Below are positions 1 to 10,003 of a DNA stretch of 10,368 nucleotides, one piece after another; position 1 is the first letter of the stretch; each line of letters opens with the position of its first letter. The translations under genes were made by a program, and so were the position numbers. The notes under the pieces are model-generated. The model had not been told where the DNA came from, searched no databases, and was given only the letters and a program-made list of their open reading frames with translations. This DNA comes from a virus, in the UHGV virus genome UHGV-0067349, one strand, 5' to 3'.

Positions 1-229
1 GGAGGGCTTTGCATTCTGCTTTGGTATACGTTTTACCGAGCATGATGTCTTTTCCGGTGTGTCCGTGACATACAGTCCATACACCAACAATATCTTTGTA
101 TGGTATGTAGCTAACACCTTCCAGACCATCGTTACCACTTGGTCCAGTGATTAACACAGATGCTATAGCAATAGCCCCGCCACTTATCGCCGCTATTACG
201 CTATTTCGTAGTGCCGGTGACATTGCCAT
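1..229 (-). CDS. SAR-type endolysin (lysozyme family), N-terminal part only; gene continues past the window start
   Basis: Minus-strand ORF from ATG at 229-227, with GAGGA 8 nt upstream. Translation: [76 protein letters not shown]. It has a Gly/Ala-rich weakly hydrophobic N-terminal segment (signal-anchor-release type) followed by a lysozyme-like region, and resembles phage 21 R / P1 Lyz type endolysins from memory. Start overlaps the 3' end of the holin gene. Absent from the ORF track because it is cut by the window edge. Confidence 0.75.
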
Positions 230-404
230 TCAATCTGTCCTCGCGCTCTTTGCGCTTGTAGTACCAGTTGATGCCAAATGTGCCGACAGTACAAAGAATA
301 CCAATGATGACAGCCCAGTCATTCAGGGAGAGAATGCCACCCATCGCAGTCAGTCCTCCGAAGCTGTAACTGAACCATTCTCTGATTTTGTCCATACGGT
401 ACAT
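201..404 (-). CDS. Class II (pinholin-like) holin with dual-start motif
   Basis: 67-aa [70 protein letters not shown]. Two predicted TM segments, the first Gly-rich and weakly hydrophobic, and a charged C-terminus. Met1-Tyr-Arg-Met4 is a dual-start arrangement typical of holin/antiholin pairs. It sits directly upstream of, and overlaps, the endolysin gene. A hairpin CCCCTcaatgaAGGGG immediately upstream includes the likely SD. Confidence 0.7.
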
Positions 405-647: not shown

Positions 648-723
648 TGGTGCTGGTTAACGGACTTGAACCGCTACCCATTCGCTTACAAGGCGACTGC
701 TCTACCATTGGAGCTAAACCAGC
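648..723 (-). tRNA. tRNA-Thr-like, anticodon UGU
   Basis: Manual cloverleaf fold of the minus-strand 76-mer GCTGGTTTAGCTCCAATGGTAGAGCAGTCGCCTTGTAAGCGAATGGGTAGCGGTTCAAGTCCGTTAACCAGCACCA. Perfect 7-bp acceptor stem, 4-bp D stem GCTC/GAGC, anticodon loop CTTGTAA, T loop TTCAAGT, 3' CCA encoded. One G.A mismatch at the top of the anticodon stem. Confidence 0.6.
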
Positions 724-728
724 ATATT

Positions 729-803
729 TGGCGGGACAGCGTGGACTCGAACCACGATAAGAAGGTTAACAGCCTTCCGTAATGACCTTTATACGACTGA
801 CCC
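729..803 (-). tRNA. tRNA-Asn-like, anticodon GUU (irregular D arm; possibly degenerate)
   Basis: Minus-strand 75-mer GGGTCAGTCGTATAAAGGTCATTACGGAAGGCTGTTAACCTTCTTATCGTGGTTCGAGTCCACGCTGTCCCGCCA. Good anticodon arm GAAGG/CTGTTAA/CCTTC, T arm CGTGG/TTCGAGT/CCACG, CCA end. Acceptor stem has one T.T mismatch and the D stem is only 3 bp. Separated from the tRNA-Thr-like gene by 5 nt. Confidence 0.45.
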
Positions 804-1077: not shown

Positions 1078-1701
1078 CTAACGTGTGACCGCATTCAAAA
1101 TATTGTCTGCGATTGACTCTTCCTTGTGGCATTGCACCACCAGAGCGTCATACAGCGGCTTAACAGTGCGTGACCAGGTGGGTTGGGTAAGGTTTGGGAT
1201 TAGCATCGTTACAGCGCGATATGCGGCGCTTGCTGGCATCCTGGAATAGCCGACGCCTTTGCATCTTCCGCACTCTTTTTCGACAACTCTCCCCCACTGC
1301 TCTGTTTTGGCAATATCAACCGCACGGCCTGTACCGTGGCAATCTCTGCATCTTGCGCCCGGCGTCGCGGCACTACGGCAATAATCCGCATAAGCGAATG
1401 TTGCGAGCACTTGCAGTACCTTTGCCTTAGTATTTCCTTCAAGTTTTGCAACGCCACGGTATTTCCCCGATACCTTGTGTGCAAATTGCATCAGATAGTT
1501 GATAGCCTTTTGTTTGTCGTTCTGGCTGAGTTCATGCTTACCGCAGAATGCAGCCATTCCGAATCCGGCTTGTGATTGCGCCATCCCCATAGCAGCCATC
1601 ACATCAGTACCGGAAAGAGAGTCAGAAGCCGTAGCCCGTGGTGAGTCGCTCATCATCGGGCTTTTTGGCGAATGAAATTTAGCTACGCTTTCGAGTCTCA
1701 T
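1078..1701 (-). CDS. Q: Late-gene antiterminator Q (lambda Q type)
   Basis: 207-aa ORF MRLESVAKFHSPKSPMMSDSPRATASD...CRDCHGTGRAVD...ECGRCKGVGYSRMPASAAYRAVTMLIPNLTQPTWSRTV..., recalled as essentially lambda Q with a Cys-rich zinc motif. SD GGGGAAGG upstream; ATGA overlap with the ninH stop; located just upstream of PR'. Confidence 0.9.
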   Translation of the reverse strand: MRLESVAKFHSPKSPMMSDSPRATASDSLSGTDVMAAMGMAQSQAGFGMAAFCGKHELSQNDKQKAINYLMQFAHKVSGKYRGVAKLEGNTKAKVLQVLATFAYADYCRSAATPGARCRDCHGTGRAVDIAKTEQWGRVVEKECGRCKGVGYSRMPASAAYRAVTMLIPNLTQPTWSRTVKPLYDALVVQCHKEESIADNILNAVTR

Positions 1702-2245: not shown

Positions 2246-2532
2246 GACTTAATCTTCCCCTCCCTCAGCAGTATCGCCTGCGTTCTGATCACGCCTTCGA
2301 GGTGGTAAAGTCTGGCGTCTTTGTTGTCGAGATTATGGGTGCGTCGGTCGATTTCATCGTGACACGCACTACAAGCCCATGCACCGATCAGGTCGTCAGG
2401 CTTCATTCCCGCTCCGCAAATTCCAGCCATCCGGTAATGTGCCAGAACTGTAGTTTCAGGATTGCCATTGCATATGCCGTAAATACGTACCTGGCATTCT
2501 CTGCCGCGCGCTTCTTTGCGTAGGTTAGCCAT
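2242..2532 (-). CDS. Cys-rich nin-region protein, YbcO/DUF1364-like
   Basis: 96-aa ORF MANLRKEARGRECQVRIYGICNGNPETTVLAHYRMAGICGAGMKPDDLIGAWACSACHDEIDRRTH... Resembles E. coli DLP12 YbcO from memory, and like ybcO sits immediately upstream of rusA. Several conserved Cys/His suggest a metal site. Confidence 0.65.
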   Translation of the reverse strand: MANLRKEARGRECQVRIYGICNGNPETTVLAHYRMAGICGAGMKPDDLIGAWACSACHDEIDRRTHNLDNKDARLYHLEGVIRTQAILLREGKIKS

Positions 2533-2801
2533 TATGGTTCACTCCAGTAATTCTCAATTGCAGCAGCCATTCTCTGCATCCACTCAGCCAGCTTTAACGC
2601 GGCTTCTCTTTCAGAACCACATTTAGGGAAATCCTTCATTTCCATGCTGGCCTTATATGTTCTGAATGCCAGGTCTCCGGTAATAATCAGCTCCTGATCA
2701 AGCACCGAGCGTTTATTCCGGTGTTGAACGTAATAGACAGATTCAGTCCGCATTTCTTCTCTGTCTTTTTTGAAGGAAATAAGCTCAGAGAAATCACTCA
2801 T
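2532..2801 (-). CDS. Hypothetical nin-region protein (89 aa)
   Basis: ORF MSDFSELISFKKDREEMRTESVYYVQHRNKRSVLDQ... in tight translational coupling: TAATG overlap with the downstream gene, and its start lies inside the ninF stop region. Family not recognised. Confidence 0.55.
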   Translation of the reverse strand: MSDFSELISFKKDREEMRTESVYYVQHRNKRSVLDQELIITGDLAFRTYKASMEMKDFPKCGSEREAALKLAEWMQRMAAAIENYWSEP

Positions 2802-2970
2802 CGTCTTCTTCCTCGTACATTGAGCTATTCGGATCGCTCATCAGTTCTGCGCAGCAGTGCTCACACACGTGAACTTCCAGCACATGTAGCTTCTGACCGC
2901 AGTTAGCGCACGTTAAAGCCCGCTCGACGCTTTCTTTCTGGTATTGGAGGGATTGGGATGGGCTAAGCAT
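2794..2970 (-). CDS. ninF: NinF (58 aa, Cys-rich); absent from the ORF track
   Basis: Manual translation of the minus strand gives [58 protein letters not shown]. Matches lambda NinF from memory with a CxxC...CxxxCC motif. Below the apparent 60-aa track cut-off. Overlaps both neighbouring genes. Confidence 0.75.
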   Translation of the reverse strand: MLSPSQSLQYQKESVERALTCANCGQKLHVLEVHVCEHCCAELMSDPNSSMYEEEDDE

Positions 2971-3328
2971 TATTGGCGTCCTGCATCATGAGAAAGACAA
3001 TCATGGCAGCGCGGAGTGGGTTTTCATCTTGAGTCATATGATATGGGGTACTATCACTGCCAACTTTTCTATGCGCTGCCTTCCATAATCCATTTTCTGG
3101 CGCTGGAATAATGCCAATTCTGTTCTCTACGATAATCGGCTCTGCGTCTGATGGGCTTTTACAGTAATCAACCGTTTTTATTGCATAACCAGTTTCGTCA
3201 TCCCACTCAACACCAACGATTGATGTTCCCAACTTTGCTATTTCGCAATCTTCGGGAGCAAATCCACAGCAAATTGCCACTCGCTTGTTAATTTCAAAAT
3301 CACTTAACTGTGAATAATCCATTGTCAT
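2963..3328 (-). CDS. Hypothetical nin-region protein between ninE and ninF (NinX position in P22-like order)
   Basis: Track ORF 2963..3364. The likely start is ATG 3328 (ATGA overlap with the ninE stop) or ATG 3322 (GAGGA 8 nt upstream), giving M(TM)[31 protein letters not shown]... Family not recognised; synteny only. Confidence 0.55.
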
Positions 3329-3501
3329 TTCCTCGCACGATGTCTTAGCCACCGGATATCCCACAGGTGAGCCGTGTAGTTGAAGGTTTTTACGTCAGAT
3401 TCTTTTGGGACTGGCTTGCGTTTATTTCTGGAGCGTTTCGTTGGAAGGTATTTGCAGTTTTCGCAGATGATGTCTGTGATACTTCGTCGCTGTCGTCTCA
3501 T
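3325..3501 (-). CDS. ninE: NinE
   Basis: Internal ATG at 3501 of track ORF 3325..3546 gives [58 protein letters not shown] (58 aa). Matches lambda NinE from memory. ATGA overlap with the ninB stop. Confidence 0.75.
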
Positions 3502-7392: not shown

Positions 7393-7449
7393 ATGTAAGT
7401 ATTTCCTTAACAAATAAGAAGTTATGCGCATCAACTTATGCGCGTTGTA

Positions 7450-7500: not shown

Positions 7501-7695
7501 CTATTTGTTTTTCTTGTTGCTTGGGAAAGGACGAACTTCCTCTCCAATCACACTGCCATCAGGCTTTACCGTAACCATGATGTTACGGCCTGCCAGAATG
7601 GCCTTGCTGATAGCGCACTGGATTACACCAAAGTCACTGGCTGCTTTAGCCTGTCCATGGATTTTGGCGTAATCGGCAAGTGTCATTCGAATCAT
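7501..7695 (-). CDS. cro: Cro repressor
   Basis: ATG at 7695 with GGAG 7 nt upstream: [64 protein letters not shown] (64 aa). Roughly 60 percent similar to lambda Cro by eye; diverged in the recognition helix. The track start at 7701 is an upstream GTG. Confidence 0.85.
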
Positions 7696-7724
7696 ATGCA
7701 CTCTCCGTTATTAACCATGAACAA

Positions 7725-7795
7725 AGAATACTACAGGTATTCAAAGCAATCAATACTCAGGGTATTTTTAGTTTAAGTACCTTAGCTATTAGAAT
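7725..7795. promoter_or_regulatory. OR operator region with divergent PR (minus strand) and PRM (plus strand)
   Basis: Three 15-bp sites of form AATAC-N5-GTATT: OR1 7727-7741 AATACTACAGGTATT, OR2 7752-7766 AATACTCAGGGTATT, weaker OR3 7776-7790 AGTACCTTAGCTATT. PR on minus strand: -35 TTGATT (7748-7753), -10 TATTCT (7725-7730), 17-nt spacer. PRM on plus strand: -10 TAGAAT at 7790-7795, 7 nt before the cI ATG with no SD, implying leaderless cI mRNA as in lambda. Confidence 0.6.
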
Positions 7796-7801
7796 TAAGC
7801 T

Positions 7802-8518
7802 ATGGAAAATAAAAAATCACTGACGACAGAACAGCTCGAAGACGCTAAGCGGCTTAAGGCTTTGTATGAGTCAAAAAAGAAAGAATTGGGAATAACCCAA
7901 TACTCAATCGCTGATGAACTGGGTATCACCCAAGGAGCGGTAGGGCATTATCTTAATGGCAGAAACGCGCTAAACGTTGAGGTTGCATCTGGTTTTGCAC
8001 GATTGTTGCAAGTCTCAATTGCTGATTTTAGCCAGTCAATTGCTGCCAAGGTTGCAGAACAGGCAGAAAGCCTTAAGAGCGATGCCAACGTAAGGTATGC
8101 AGGGGAATACAGAGCAGGAAAGAGGTATCCGGTGTTAAGCAGTATCCAGGCTGGCTCGTGGTGTGAAGCATGCGAACCATACACCATTAAAGACATAGAT
8201 GTTTGGCTTGAGTCTGACGCGCATATTCAAGGTAATGCGTTTTGGCTTAAAGTGGAAGGTGATTCAATGACGGCACCGGTTGGGTTAAGCATTCCAGAGG
8301 GAACATTCGTTCTTTTCGATACCGGAAGGGAGGCGATCAACGGCAGCTTGGTCATAGCAAAACTTTCTGACTCTAACGAAGCAACATTCAAGAAGCTGAT
8401 AATCGACGGCGGAAATAAATACCTCAAGGGACTTAACCCTGCATGGCCTCTCGTGCCAATCAATGGAAACTGCAAGATTATAGGCGTTGCAATTGAGACA
8501 AAACTAAGGCTGGTTTGA
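7802..8518 (+). CDS. cI: CI prophage repressor (HTH N-domain plus LexA-like S24 autocleavage C-domain)
   Basis: 238-aa ORF MENKKSLTTEQLEDAKRLKALYESKKKELGITQYSIADELGITQGAVGHYLNG... Parallels lambda cI, with AG cleavage site (IQAGSW), catalytic Ser motif VEGDSMTAP and Lys motif TFKKL. Divergent from, and heteroimmune to, lambda. Confidence 0.9.
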   Translation: MENKKSLTTEQLEDAKRLKALYESKKKELGITQYSIADELGITQGAVGHYLNGRNALNVEVASGFARLLQVSIADFSQSIAAKVAEQAESLKSDANVRYAGEYRAGKRYPVLSSIQAGSWCEACEPYTIKDIDVWLESDAHIQGNAFWLKVEGDSMTAPVGLSIPEGTFVLFDTGREAINGSLVIAKLSDSNEATFKKLIIDGGNKYLKGLNPAWPLVPINGNCKIIGVAIETKLRLV

Positions 8519-8535
8519 TCACGCAAGGGGCGATT

Positions 8536-8904
8536 ATGGTTGGAACCGCTATAGCAAGCTTTTTGGGGATGTTGGCAATCTCAACAATTTACGGCTTAGC
8601 GCATGCTTTTATTGCGAAATCTCTATCAGAAAAAATAAGCCAGGCTTGGGCGCATAGATCAGCTCGTTTCATGATTCTGGTGATCATGGCAATACAAGGG
8701 ATATCTGCATTTATCCTCTATGGATCAAGCTTATGCCTATTGTATCAAGGCGCGACATTTACGCCTTACACCAGTGATTACGGAACTCTATACGATGGTA
8801 GTGAAGACATCTCTATGGCTTGGATTGTCTTTGGTTTATCTATGGCCGTGTCTGTTGTAGCAGACATCATTAAGGTAATTCTCGTCTTAACCTTCGCTGA
8901 CTAA
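8536..8904 (+). CDS. Three-TM membrane protein co-transcribed downstream of cI (rexAB-position moron); function unknown
   Basis: ATG at 8536 with AAGGGG 5 nt upstream, 17 nt after the cI stop, same strand. MVGTAIASFLGMLAISTIYGLAHAFIAKSLSEKISQAWAHRSARFMILVIMAIQGISAFILYGSSLCLLYQGATFTPYTSDYGTLYDGSEDISMAWIVFGLSMAVSVVADIIKVILVLTFAD. Three hydrophobic helices. The track start at 8515 is an upstream TTG. Confidence 0.65.
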   Translation: MVGTAIASFLGMLAISTIYGLAHAFIAKSLSEKISQAWAHRSARFMILVIMAIQGISAFILYGSSLCLLYQGATFTPYTSDYGTLYDGSEDISMAWIVFGLSMAVSVVADIIKVILVLTFAD

Positions 8905-9037
8905 CCCATAATCCCGGCAGCAATAGCTATCGGGATCCACTTCACATATCCCGCATAAAAAGCACTGAACAAGCAGACACCGAAAAAAATAAATATCCTT
9001 TGTATTCATTTACTTATCATTATTTCACCAAAAAATA

Positions 9038-9079
9038 AATACCTTGGGTATTTACACAATAAAATACCTACAGTATTCT
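9038..9079 (+). promoter_or_regulatory. OL operators and PL promoter
   Basis: OL2 9038-9052 AATACCTTGGGTATT and OL1 9063-9077 AATACCTACAGTATT, the same AATAC-N5-GTATT motif and 25-bp centre spacing as OR1/OR2. PL: -35 TTTACA (9051-9056), 17-nt spacer, -10 TATTCT (9074-9079), identical to the PR -10. Confidence 0.55.
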
Positions 9080-9125
9080 TTAGCCATCAGCAGGACGCTG
9101 GAAGCCAAACGGAATAGATTGGCAG

Positions 9126-9167
9126 GCTCTTTAACATTGATGGGATTGTCCCGCCGAAATGCGGGAA
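9126..9167 (+). promoter_or_regulatory. nutL (boxA plus boxB)
   Basis: boxA GCTCTTTAACA (9126-9136), a 12-nt spacer, then boxB hairpin TCCCGC-CGAAAT-GCGGGAA (9149-9167). Core identical to nutR; about 40 nt downstream of the predicted PL start. Confidence 0.6.
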
Positions 9168-9680
9168 CTGAGTTTAACCAAACAGGAGGTGCCGTAATGG
9201 TGCACTAACGCGGTTAGACCGCAGCCGAAAGGCAATGCAGCAGTAATGATGCTGCCCCGAGTCGCGTAATGGCGAGCAGGTTTAGCAGACCGATGTGAGG
9301 GTAAATAAGGGAACATGCTCCGGAAAGGCAGCGCGAATGCCAGACGCGCACCGGTTATCAGCGGCTAATAAGCGACAGAGACTCAAGGGCATGAGCGCGC
9401 TCACTGCGAGAGTGTGAGTCAAAGAGTAGTTGGCTTTGGGGTGACGTGAAGTGCAGCTGCACGACGGCAACCGGAAGATAAGCACCCGGCGCGTCACCGC
9501 CAAAGTCAATTCCATAGGCGTTATGCAGCCGCCACCATATTCAAGAAAGCTGCACAAGAGGTAGGAGGATTTATGTGAATACTTACATTCAGTTGAGAGA
9601 TTAATTAAATAGAACTGATCGAGCAGAGTCCATAAAGGCTCATAAATGCTCTTCCATCCCCGTCTAATTGGCGGGGAAGG

Positions 9681-9716
9681 AAACAACTTTGTAATAAAAA
9701 AATTCCAAAGTTGTTT
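9681..9716 (+). promoter_or_regulatory. 11-bp perfect hairpin immediately upstream of the N ribosome-binding site
   Basis: AAACAACTTTG-(14-nt A-rich loop)-CAAAGTTGTTT, ending 4 nt before GGAGG and 14 nt before the N ATG. Analogous in position to the RNase III-processed leader hairpin that modulates N translation in lambda. Confidence 0.4.
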
Positions 9717-9730
9717 CATCGGAGGTCAAC

Positions 9731-10003
9731 ATGACAGTAGTCATTACATATCTGGCTGACGATAACGCCAGAAATCGCCGCAGAGCACGCAGACAGGCTC
9801 AACGTGAACAGGCAATGCAAGAGCAGCGACTGGCGCGAAAGATTGCGCTAAAGCTCTCTGGTTGCGTCAGAGCAGACAAAGCAGCATCACTCGGAAGCCT
9901 TCGCTGTAAGAAGGCAGATGAATGCAGTGGAAGTATTTGCCTGCCAAACGTAGCCATTTACGCGGCAGGCTACCGGAAATCAAAACAACTGACGGCGAGA
10001 TGA
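9731..10003 (+). CDS. N: Antiterminator N (arginine-rich motif); reading frame appears interrupted relative to the conserved C-terminus
   Basis: ATG at 9731 with GGAGG SD. MTVVITYLADDNARNRRRARRQAQREQAMQEQRLARKIALKLSGCVRADKAASLGSLRCKKADE... carries an ARM like lambda N (QTRRRERRAEKQAQW). The lambda-like N C-terminus (..GEMTCVGRQKQRGKSIPAYYD, stop 10057-10059) is in the -1 frame (open 9922-10059). Confidence 0.6.
   Translation: MTVVITYLADDNARNRRRARRQAQREQAMQEQRLARKIALKLSGCVRADKAASLGSLRCKKADECSGSICLPNVAIYAAGYRKSKQLTAR

Follow-up and report, generated by a model that had tools for sequence, protein, structure and literature searches.

An HK620-type immunity region with a single gene behind the repressor

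The window (the whole stretch of 10,368 nt that was analysed, from the virus genome UHGV-0067349) carries the gene hkaS between the repressor gene cI and the left operators. Among its neighbors, Pfam identified cI, cro, an N-type antiterminator gene, and also CII (Table 1). The surrounding immunity region is of the type of coliphage HK620, because the OR1–3, OL1, OL2, pL, and nutL elements annotated in that phage map onto the window without a mismatch and OL3 with only one. The HK620 record gives the gene order cI, hkaS, tIMM, OL3–OL1, pL, nutL, N.

Table 1. Features of the immunity region and the adjoining PL–N leader, in window coordinates
Feature	Position	Strand	Description and basis
cro	7501–7698	−	Identified by Pfam; identical to cro of HK620
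OR1–OR2–OR3 with divergent PR/PRM	7726–7791	.	Identical to annotated HK620 OR1–3 and pR; PRM by analogy to lambda
cI	7802–8518	+	HK620 immunity type, 238 aa; Pfam HTH_3 and Peptidase_S24; 99.6% identical to HK620 CI
hkaS Shine-Dalgarno sequence, AAGGGG	8525–8530	+	5 nt 5′ of the ATG; from sequence
hkaS	8536–8904	+	122 aa; three-helix integral membrane protein, phrog_6534 family
RNA hairpin 3′ of hkaS	8911–8936	+	Folding; lacks a U-tract in the E. coli lineage
OL3–OL2–OL1 with PL	9014–9086	+	HK620 annotation mapped, 0–1 mismatches
OL3	9014–9030		One mismatch to HK620
OL2, OL1, PL	9037–9086		HK620 annotation, no mismatch
PL, TTTACA-17-TATTCT	9051–9079	+	Sigma-70-like
nutL	9125–9166		HK620 annotation, no mismatch
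Structured RNA candidate, ~200 nt	9207–9421	+	Same strand as PL transcription; covariation
N-type antiterminator	9731–10003	+	Pfam

As the original prediction had stated, a 122-aa reading frame with its own Shine-Dalgarno sequence starts 17 nt behind the cI stop codon on the same strand, and the mapped operators place it before OL/PL. In the program-made listing, the same frame appears as a 129-aa ORF initiated by TTG (8515–8904). This upstream start was dropped in favor of the ATG at 8536, which yields an M-[VI]-G N-terminus conserved in all lineages and follows a Shine-Dalgarno sequence whose AGG-type counterpart sits at the equivalent spot in the Salmonella, Hafnia, and metagenome homologs. 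Likewise, a 40-aa minus-strand ORF (8887–9009) was discarded, being broken in the Salmonella lineage and starting within operator-like DNA. The ORF listing of the window contains no second ORF between cI and OL besides hkaS, in line with the earlier claim that no soluble partner gene is present. The GC content of hkaS (~43%) resembles that of cI, and its base composition does not look foreign.

Between positions 7400 and 9800, the sole sigma-70-like site is PL, and none was found between cI and hkaS. Upstream of the repressor, a TAGAAT hexamer resembling a –10 element (7790–7795) ends 6 nt before the cI ATG, suggesting that the PRM transcript may be leaderless, as in lambda. Downstream of hkaS, hairpins of different sequence were predicted at the equivalent place in the window (z-score –2.2), Hafnia (–5.1), and Salmonella (–3.4), and the Buttiauxella homolog is followed by a canonical intrinsic terminator composed of a stem and a U-run. 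Hairpins thus occur behind hkaS in four to five lineages, the canonical terminator in Buttiauxella only, and the hairpin of the window is a candidate for the end or a stabilizer of a cI–hkaS transcript.

The shared strand, a gap of 17–20 nt in every lineage, the conserved Shine-Dalgarno sequence, the lack of a promoter-like site between the two genes, and the hairpin or terminator behind them together are consistent with a cI–hkaS operon. In HK620-type immunity regions, hkaS would then be the second cistron of this operon, presumably transcribed in the lysogen from PRM and, while lysogeny is being established, from PRE, and translated from its own Shine-Dalgarno sequence to give a three-helix product that would be inserted into the inner membrane. 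By analogy to cI–bstA of BTP1, which form one transcript by RNA-seq (PMC7067206), and to the cI–hex genes of phage 434, whose co-transcription was demonstrated by RT-PCR (PMC3564112), hkaS should be made in the lysogen. For a cI gene that may differ in type from the present one, an sRNA, svsR, has been reported at the 3′ terminus (PMC12803456).

The element named tIMM by the HK620 annotators maps to about 8987–9017 of the window. The stretch 8987–9009 on the plus strand (AAATAAATATCCTTTGTATTCAT) forms no hairpin. Its sequence looks like an operator half-site (pattern AATA...GTATTC) and has been kept in the Salmonella-type loci. Rather than a terminator, it may be an additional or the true OL3 site. 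At the other end of the window, two tRNA genes (651–803, minus strand) lie between a Q-like antiterminator gene (1078–1701, minus strand) and a holin-like ORF (201–404, minus strand). Stx phages carry tRNAs and stx at the equivalent place; in the window, no toxin gene is present at the position of the tRNAs.

HkaS belongs to a catalogued family and is a sequence and fold orphan

The protein had been introduced as uncharacterised, which does not hold in the sense of a new gene: it was already catalogued as hkaS of HK620 in 2001 and as phrog_6534, in both cases with function unknown. Residues 1–122 of HkaS align to positions 1–122 of the 122 positions of the phrog_6534 profile (E = 1.8e-77), its sole PHROG match. 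Over all 122 residues, the protein is 95% identical to HkaS of HK620 (AAK28867, annotated "unknown"), from which it differs at six positions. The two are the same gene, as they occupy an identical position between cI and OL/PL next to a nearly identical cI, and HK620 shares the cro gene and the operators of the window apart from the single OL3 mismatch. Copies with 90–98% identity reside in HK630, HK140, mEpX2, HZ41, HF4s, phi296/phi367, vB_EcoP-611R6, and two Stx2c-converting phages.

A word-indexed search of 5.8 billion proteins retrieved 11 HkaS clusters at 53–98% identity, from E. coli, Hafnia paralvei, Salmonella Mbandaka, and metagenomes. Exhaustive HMMER comparison of a six-member HkaS family profile against 1.84 billion representative proteins returned the HkaS cluster itself, a 44-aa fragment, one repeat-protein artefact, and nothing else. 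No match was obtained in NCBIfam, the PDB sequence search, or BFVD, and with either start codon 0 families of PADLOC-DB 2.0 were matched at E ≤ 1. A Pfam match to TssN remained below threshold (13.6 bits vs. a cut-off of 30.3 bits) and was dismissed as noise from hydrophobic segments. Pfam, NCBIfam, PDB, and the exhaustive HMMER search thus gave no confident match to a housekeeping or structural family, and HkaS is a strict orphan in both sequence and fold. This orphan status, together with clear purifying selection and the fixation and co-divergence of the gene in one immunity lineage across four genera (see below), is what the present analysis adds; hkaS as an ORF and the idea of defense genes in the cI–N slot were known before.

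A three-helix membrane protein with a conserved, predicted periplasmic loop and a conserved third helix

The predicted three-transmembrane (TM) character was borne out by Kyte–Doolittle analysis, which placed hydrophobic segments at residues ~3–27, 45–70, and 93–121, and by an AlphaFold2 model (mean pLDDT 89.8) with helices at 2–29, 31–38, 41–74, and 89–121 and a small beta-hairpin in the 75–88 loop. The loop at 28–44 is basic (K28, K33, R41, R44), and that at 71–92 combines an acidic character (D81, D87, E90, D91) with many Tyr and Gly residues. Based on the positive-inside rule, we infer an N-out/C-in topology, with the basic loop predicted to be cytoplasmic and the acidic hairpin loop periplasmic.

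Invariant residues fall into three clusters, namely AWAHR-ARF (cytoplasmic, juxtamembrane), LLYQGATF-PY-S-YG--Y-G (periplasmic loop), and TM3 including D110 and K113. TM1 and TM2 are the variable parts of the protein, and the periplasmic loop and TM3, with its buried D110 and K113, the most conserved ones. Conserved polar or charged residues within helices comprise Q54, S106, D110, and K113. Judged from the alignment, this pattern would suit a specific partner, either inside the membrane or on its periplasmic side.

Two other interpretations of the hydrophobic segments were rejected. A cleavable signal peptide (AHA, residues 22–24) was dropped, as the motif is missing in the Salmonella-type proteins and a basic n-region is lacking. 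A class I holin would match the predicted N-out/C-in topology; however, HkaS ends in ...LTFAD directly after TM3 with no basic tail, hkaS is part of the immunity region rather than of a lysis cassette, a separate holin-like ORF is present in the window, and no Pfam holin family was matched. Codon 67 of the window's hkaS (8734–8736) encodes Cys instead of the Tyr found in the other 79 E. coli-type copies (Y67C; 80 sequences, comprising 79 IMG/VR copies and the window), and this position is nearly invariant in the wider family, too.

Immunity proteins of the colicin E1/Ia type have a length of about 110 aa and span the membrane with three TM helices. The size and layout of HkaS match this class, its loop and TM3 are conserved, and hkaS is widely distributed among E. 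coli, commensals and pathogens alike, as might be expected if the gene served lysogenic conversion unrelated to phages, that is, as an immunity protein against a pore-forming bacteriocin or as an envelope-stress factor. We consider this quite improbable: Pfam colicin-immunity families gave no match at E ≤ 0.1, none of 72,556 plasmids, the usual home of such immunity genes, carried a homolog, and the window contains no bacteriocin gene nearby.

hkaS is maintained by purifying selection and inherited with cI

hkaS was detected in 146 of 5,426 complete E. coli genomes (~2.7%), and HK620-type cI (at least 95% identity) likewise in 146 of the 5,426, the two genes having been counted independently of each other. 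All 80 copies in IMG/VR are intact, with neither stops nor frameshifts, and in each of the 79 IMG/VR loci with upstream sequence a full-length HK620-type cI precedes hkaS by 17–19 nt. Indeed, hkaS stood behind every HK620-type cI that was examined, and in the Salmonella, Hafnia, metagenome, and Buttiauxella loci it directly follows cI as in the window. Across lineages, the divergence of HkaS scales with that of CI, with identities of 96% for CI and 80% for HkaS in the Hafnia lineage, 86% and 59% in the Salmonella lineage, and 84% and 53% in the metagenome lineage.

Relative to the Hafnia copies, synonymous divergence was called the same for both genes (dS of 0.76 for cI and 0.66 for hkaS), and dN/dS amounted to 0.16 for hkaS and 0.03 for cI. 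Two Salmonella hkaS copies differed by 10 synonymous and 0 non-synonymous changes. Within E. coli, 23 codons of hkaS are polymorphic at the amino acid level vs. five in the twice-longer cI; most of the hkaS polymorphisms are conservative changes in TM1 and TM2, and there was no sign of diversifying selection.

Could hkaS be a non-functional or mis-called ORF, a mere filler between cI and OL? The lack of a known domain and a non-synonymous polymorphism above that of cI might be read this way, but the probability is negligible and the idea effectively refuted. The low dN/dS at a dS of 0.66, the 80 intact copies out of 80, the conserved Shine-Dalgarno sequence, and the confident AlphaFold2 model all speak for a real, maintained gene under purifying selection, as does the retention of 53–59% protein identity in distant lineages whose synonymous sites are saturated.

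The Buttiauxella locus (Buttiauxella sp. contig CBCPKK010000004.1, mosaic repressor and hkaS at 2333–3369) reveals which part of cI travels with the gene. Here, an HkaS of 54% identity is encoded behind a 215-aa repressor with an HK620-type C-terminal domain, and the N-terminal helix-turn-helix domain of the repressor as well as Cro are unrelated to the HK620-type ones. The junction of the mosaic thus falls within cI and keeps the C-terminal domain joined to hkaS. Hence, hkaS and the C-terminal domain of cI have been passed on as one unit, in which hkaS evolves four to five times faster than the domain at non-synonymous sites.

This module occurs in HK620 (Lederbergvirus, the genus of P22), HK140 (Hendrixvirinae), HK630, and Stx2c phages. 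As these phages belong to different taxonomic groups, the role of hkaS should serve the lysogen rather than one particle type. Carriers of hkaS include O145:H28 and O111 E. coli strains as well as the Stx2c-converting phages.

A stable occupant of a variable slot

The interval between cI and N is a documented site of lysogen-expressed accessory or defense genes, among them rexAB, bstA, 933W stk, and hex (PMC8585504, PMC7067206, PMC3564112), and a mosaic hotspot according to Degnan et al. 2007, to whom PMC8585504 and PMC7067206 refer. As originally stated, rexA–rexB fills the cI–OL interval of lambda, and rexAB also occupies the slot of Hafnia phage yong1; bstA of BTP1 resides in the cI–N slot as well (PMC8585504). 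The slot is empty in P22, where OL follows c2 after 38 bp, and codes for an unrelated soluble protein of 103 aa in a prophage of O103:H2 with a cI C-terminal domain 72% identical to the present one. In another prophage, the slot contains a 67-aa ORF on the opposite strand, and in epsilon34 two genes (44/45), for which the record assigns no function, lie there behind the repressor. bstA, stk, hex, and the epsilon34 genes are placed downstream of the repressor as is hkaS, with roles in defense or induction tuning, but are unrelated to HkaS in sequence, and PADLOC, which should hold BstA, gave no match.

Taken across phages, these occupants identify the slot as a recognized site of lysogen-expressed accessory genes, of which HkaS is one specific and stable occupant. 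The earlier description of the slot as a cargo hotspot therefore stands for other lambdoid phages but not for this lineage, where hkaS is fixed and co-diverges with cI. Its linkage contrasts with the usual picture of the interval, and the gene behaves as a fixed part of the HK620-type immunity module, not as swappable cargo.

One way to account for such linkage is that HkaS modulates the lysogeny switch or prophage maintenance, tuning induction or repressor stability, perhaps through a membrane protease such as FtsH. Linkage to and co-divergence with the C-terminal domain of CI, which mediates cleavage and dimerization, are absolute, and HkaS was kept in Buttiauxella despite the swapped DNA-binding domain and Cro. 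There are also precedents, as Hex of phage 434 blocks RecA-mediated repressor cleavage (PMC3564112) and a role of lambda RexAB is cited in PMC12315714. Still, linkage may reflect mere adjacency, the only parts of HkaS predicted to be cytoplasmic, a loop of 17 residues and the tip of TM3 at the C-terminus, offer little surface for contacts with CI or RecA, and the more distant relatives of the cI C-terminal domain have other genes or nothing in the slot. On balance, we regard a switch modulator as improbable.

A related option, to which we likewise give only a small chance, comes in two forms. HkaS may be a membrane component coupled to the CI C-terminal domain, e.g. a sensor linking the state of the envelope or membrane to repressor cleavage and induction, or else a sensor-less single-protein defense with a new mechanism. 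The former is compatible with the unbroken co-inheritance of hkaS and the cI C-terminal domain in four genera despite exchange of the DNA-binding domain and Cro.

HkaS as a candidate superinfection-exclusion protein

Lambda RexB (PF15968) is the obvious comparison. It shares with HkaS the slot, the operon logic of cI, accessory gene, and OL/PL, and the nature of a small polytopic protein that in lambda is made in the lysogen and resides in the inner membrane, as predicted for HkaS; RexB, however, comprises 144 aa, as opposed to the 122 aa and three predicted TM helices of HkaS. The earlier impression that HkaS is unlike RexA and RexB was correct: the Pfam RexB family gave no match to HkaS at E ≤ 0.1 (vs. 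8.5e-92 for lambda RexB itself), an hhalign comparison with RexB reached 0.3% probability, and no RexA homolog is encoded in the window or at any homologous hkaS locus.

These results bear on the possibility that HkaS is an abortive-infection effector, i.e. a latent RexB-like membrane pore that an infection signal would open to depolarize the cell and abort phage growth. Its slot is that of rexAB and bstA, and a small polytopic protein with the intrahelical residues Q54, S106, D110, and K113 is what a channel might look like. Yet RexB needs RexA, and the present slot, which contains hkaS only, provides no sensor partner; homology to RexB or to any PADLOC family is absent, and a pore lacking a sensor should be toxic if PRM drove its production constitutively. 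We therefore rate an abortive-infection pore as unlikely.

The best functional analog is SieA of P22 (phrog_7745), a prophage-expressed inner-membrane protein with three predicted TM segments and no soluble domain, which alone is sufficient to protect against DNA injection (PMC10883804). No homology between HkaS and P22 SieA could be detected (hhalign probability 0.25%). SieA also differs in its size (162–164 aa) and in the location of its gene, which has a promoter of its own in the immI/ant region, whereas HkaS is encoded behind the repressor. T4 Imm and HK97 gp15 are further small membrane proteins that block the entry of phage DNA at the inner membrane; they differ from HkaS in size and TM number and are not known to be encoded behind a repressor.

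Our tentative reading, to which we assign somewhat less than an even chance, is that HkaS is a lysogen-expressed superinfection-exclusion protein of the inner membrane. Acting alone, it would hinder DNA delivery at this membrane by heteroimmune phages, which CI cannot stop. Several observations point in this direction. HkaS is a lone, small protein that is nearly all membrane, with neither a soluble domain nor a partner gene; the precedents in its slot (bstA, hex, rexAB, stk) act in the lysogen and are co-transcribed with the repressor; and SieA, an unrelated three-TM protein, blocks entry by itself. Purifying selection, the conserved periplasmic loop and TM3, and the independence from virion type are consistent with the same role. 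Moreover, lone membrane proteins that are harmless when constitutively present, as HkaS would have to be, are typically entry blockers, and a protein of this kind is more easily reconciled with an entry block than with a depolarizing abortive-infection effector.

Several points weigh against superinfection exclusion. HkaS resembles no exclusion or defense protein in sequence, profile, or fold, and a literature search, which did not include the original 2001 description of HK620 (J Mol Biol), found no functional study of hkaS or of HK620 phenotypes, and hence no published hkaS phenotype. There was no sign of diversifying selection, and the periplasmic loop is the most invariant part of the protein, contrary to the expectation for an arms race against proteins of phages. 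A role within the immunity module would account equally well for the way in which hkaS and the cI C-terminal domain are strictly linked 1:1 and diverge together. Finally, these phages already possess a SieB-like gene (hkaP in HK620, HK140_046).

With ~2.7% of complete E. coli genomes carrying hkaS in what is, by inference, the most strongly expressed operon of the prophage, the function of its product matters beyond the present virus. If HkaS blocks phage entry, it would add a new sequence family to the few characterized inner-membrane exclusion proteins and be relevant to E. coli phage therapy and phage typing; if it tunes induction instead, it would bear on the activation of Shiga-toxin phages. 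As a single 369-bp gene present in the natural phages HK620, HK140, HK630, and mEpX2, hkaS is a cheap and well-defined target.

A structured RNA in the PL–N leader

Compared with HK620, the PL–N leader of the window contains two extra segments. The second of these (~200 bp, about 9512–9720, plus strand) is missing in HK620 but present in HK140, whose annotation has a 'hypothetical protein' of 41 aa within it. It includes two hairpins just 5′ of the N start (CCCCGTCTAATTGGCGGGG and AAACAACTTTG...CAAAGTTGTTT), and comparison of the segment with Rfam yielded chance-level matches only.

The first extra segment (251 bp, about 9170–9420), also missing in HK620, lies just after nutL and encompasses what looks like a structured RNA of lambdoid phages that lacks an Rfam family (Table 1). 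The element had no match in Rfam 15 even at E ≤ 10, and a text search of the literature for its conserved motifs found no paper. Elements 77–99% identical to it occur in unannotated DNA of Escherichia, Hafnia, Klebsiella, and Providencia phages. They always point in the direction of transcription, but their location varies: some lie in the interval from nutL to N, others immediately behind Q, and others where the lysis genes adjoin the terminase genes. An exact 19-nt pattern retrieved the element from at least 120 IMG/VR contigs with 99 distinct sequences. Of the 5,426 E. coli genomes, 113 contain it, virtually always without an annotation in RefSeq.

An alignment of 16 sequences supports a consensus structure of 11 helices and 42 pairs that is 98.5% paired. 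Compensatory double changes affect 15 pairs, vs. 4.9 ± 1.6 in shuffled alignments (0 of 500 reaching 15) and 1–5 in slid registers.

Just 5′ of the first helix, the window contains a strong Shine-Dalgarno sequence, AGGAGG, followed by a mini-ORF of three codons (AUG GUG CAC UAA; 9184–9208, plus strand). Among 92 distinct sequences upstream of the element, 79 have an ATG-initiated mini-ORF of 1–5 sense codons at this place; in 53 cases, the number of sense codons is exactly three. A GGAGG-like Shine-Dalgarno sequence precedes the mini-ORF in 65 upstream sequences. The encoded peptides vary (MKH, MKQ, MVH, and others), that is, the length of the mini-ORF is conserved and the peptide sequence is not, in a manner reminiscent of the bar minigenes of lambda.
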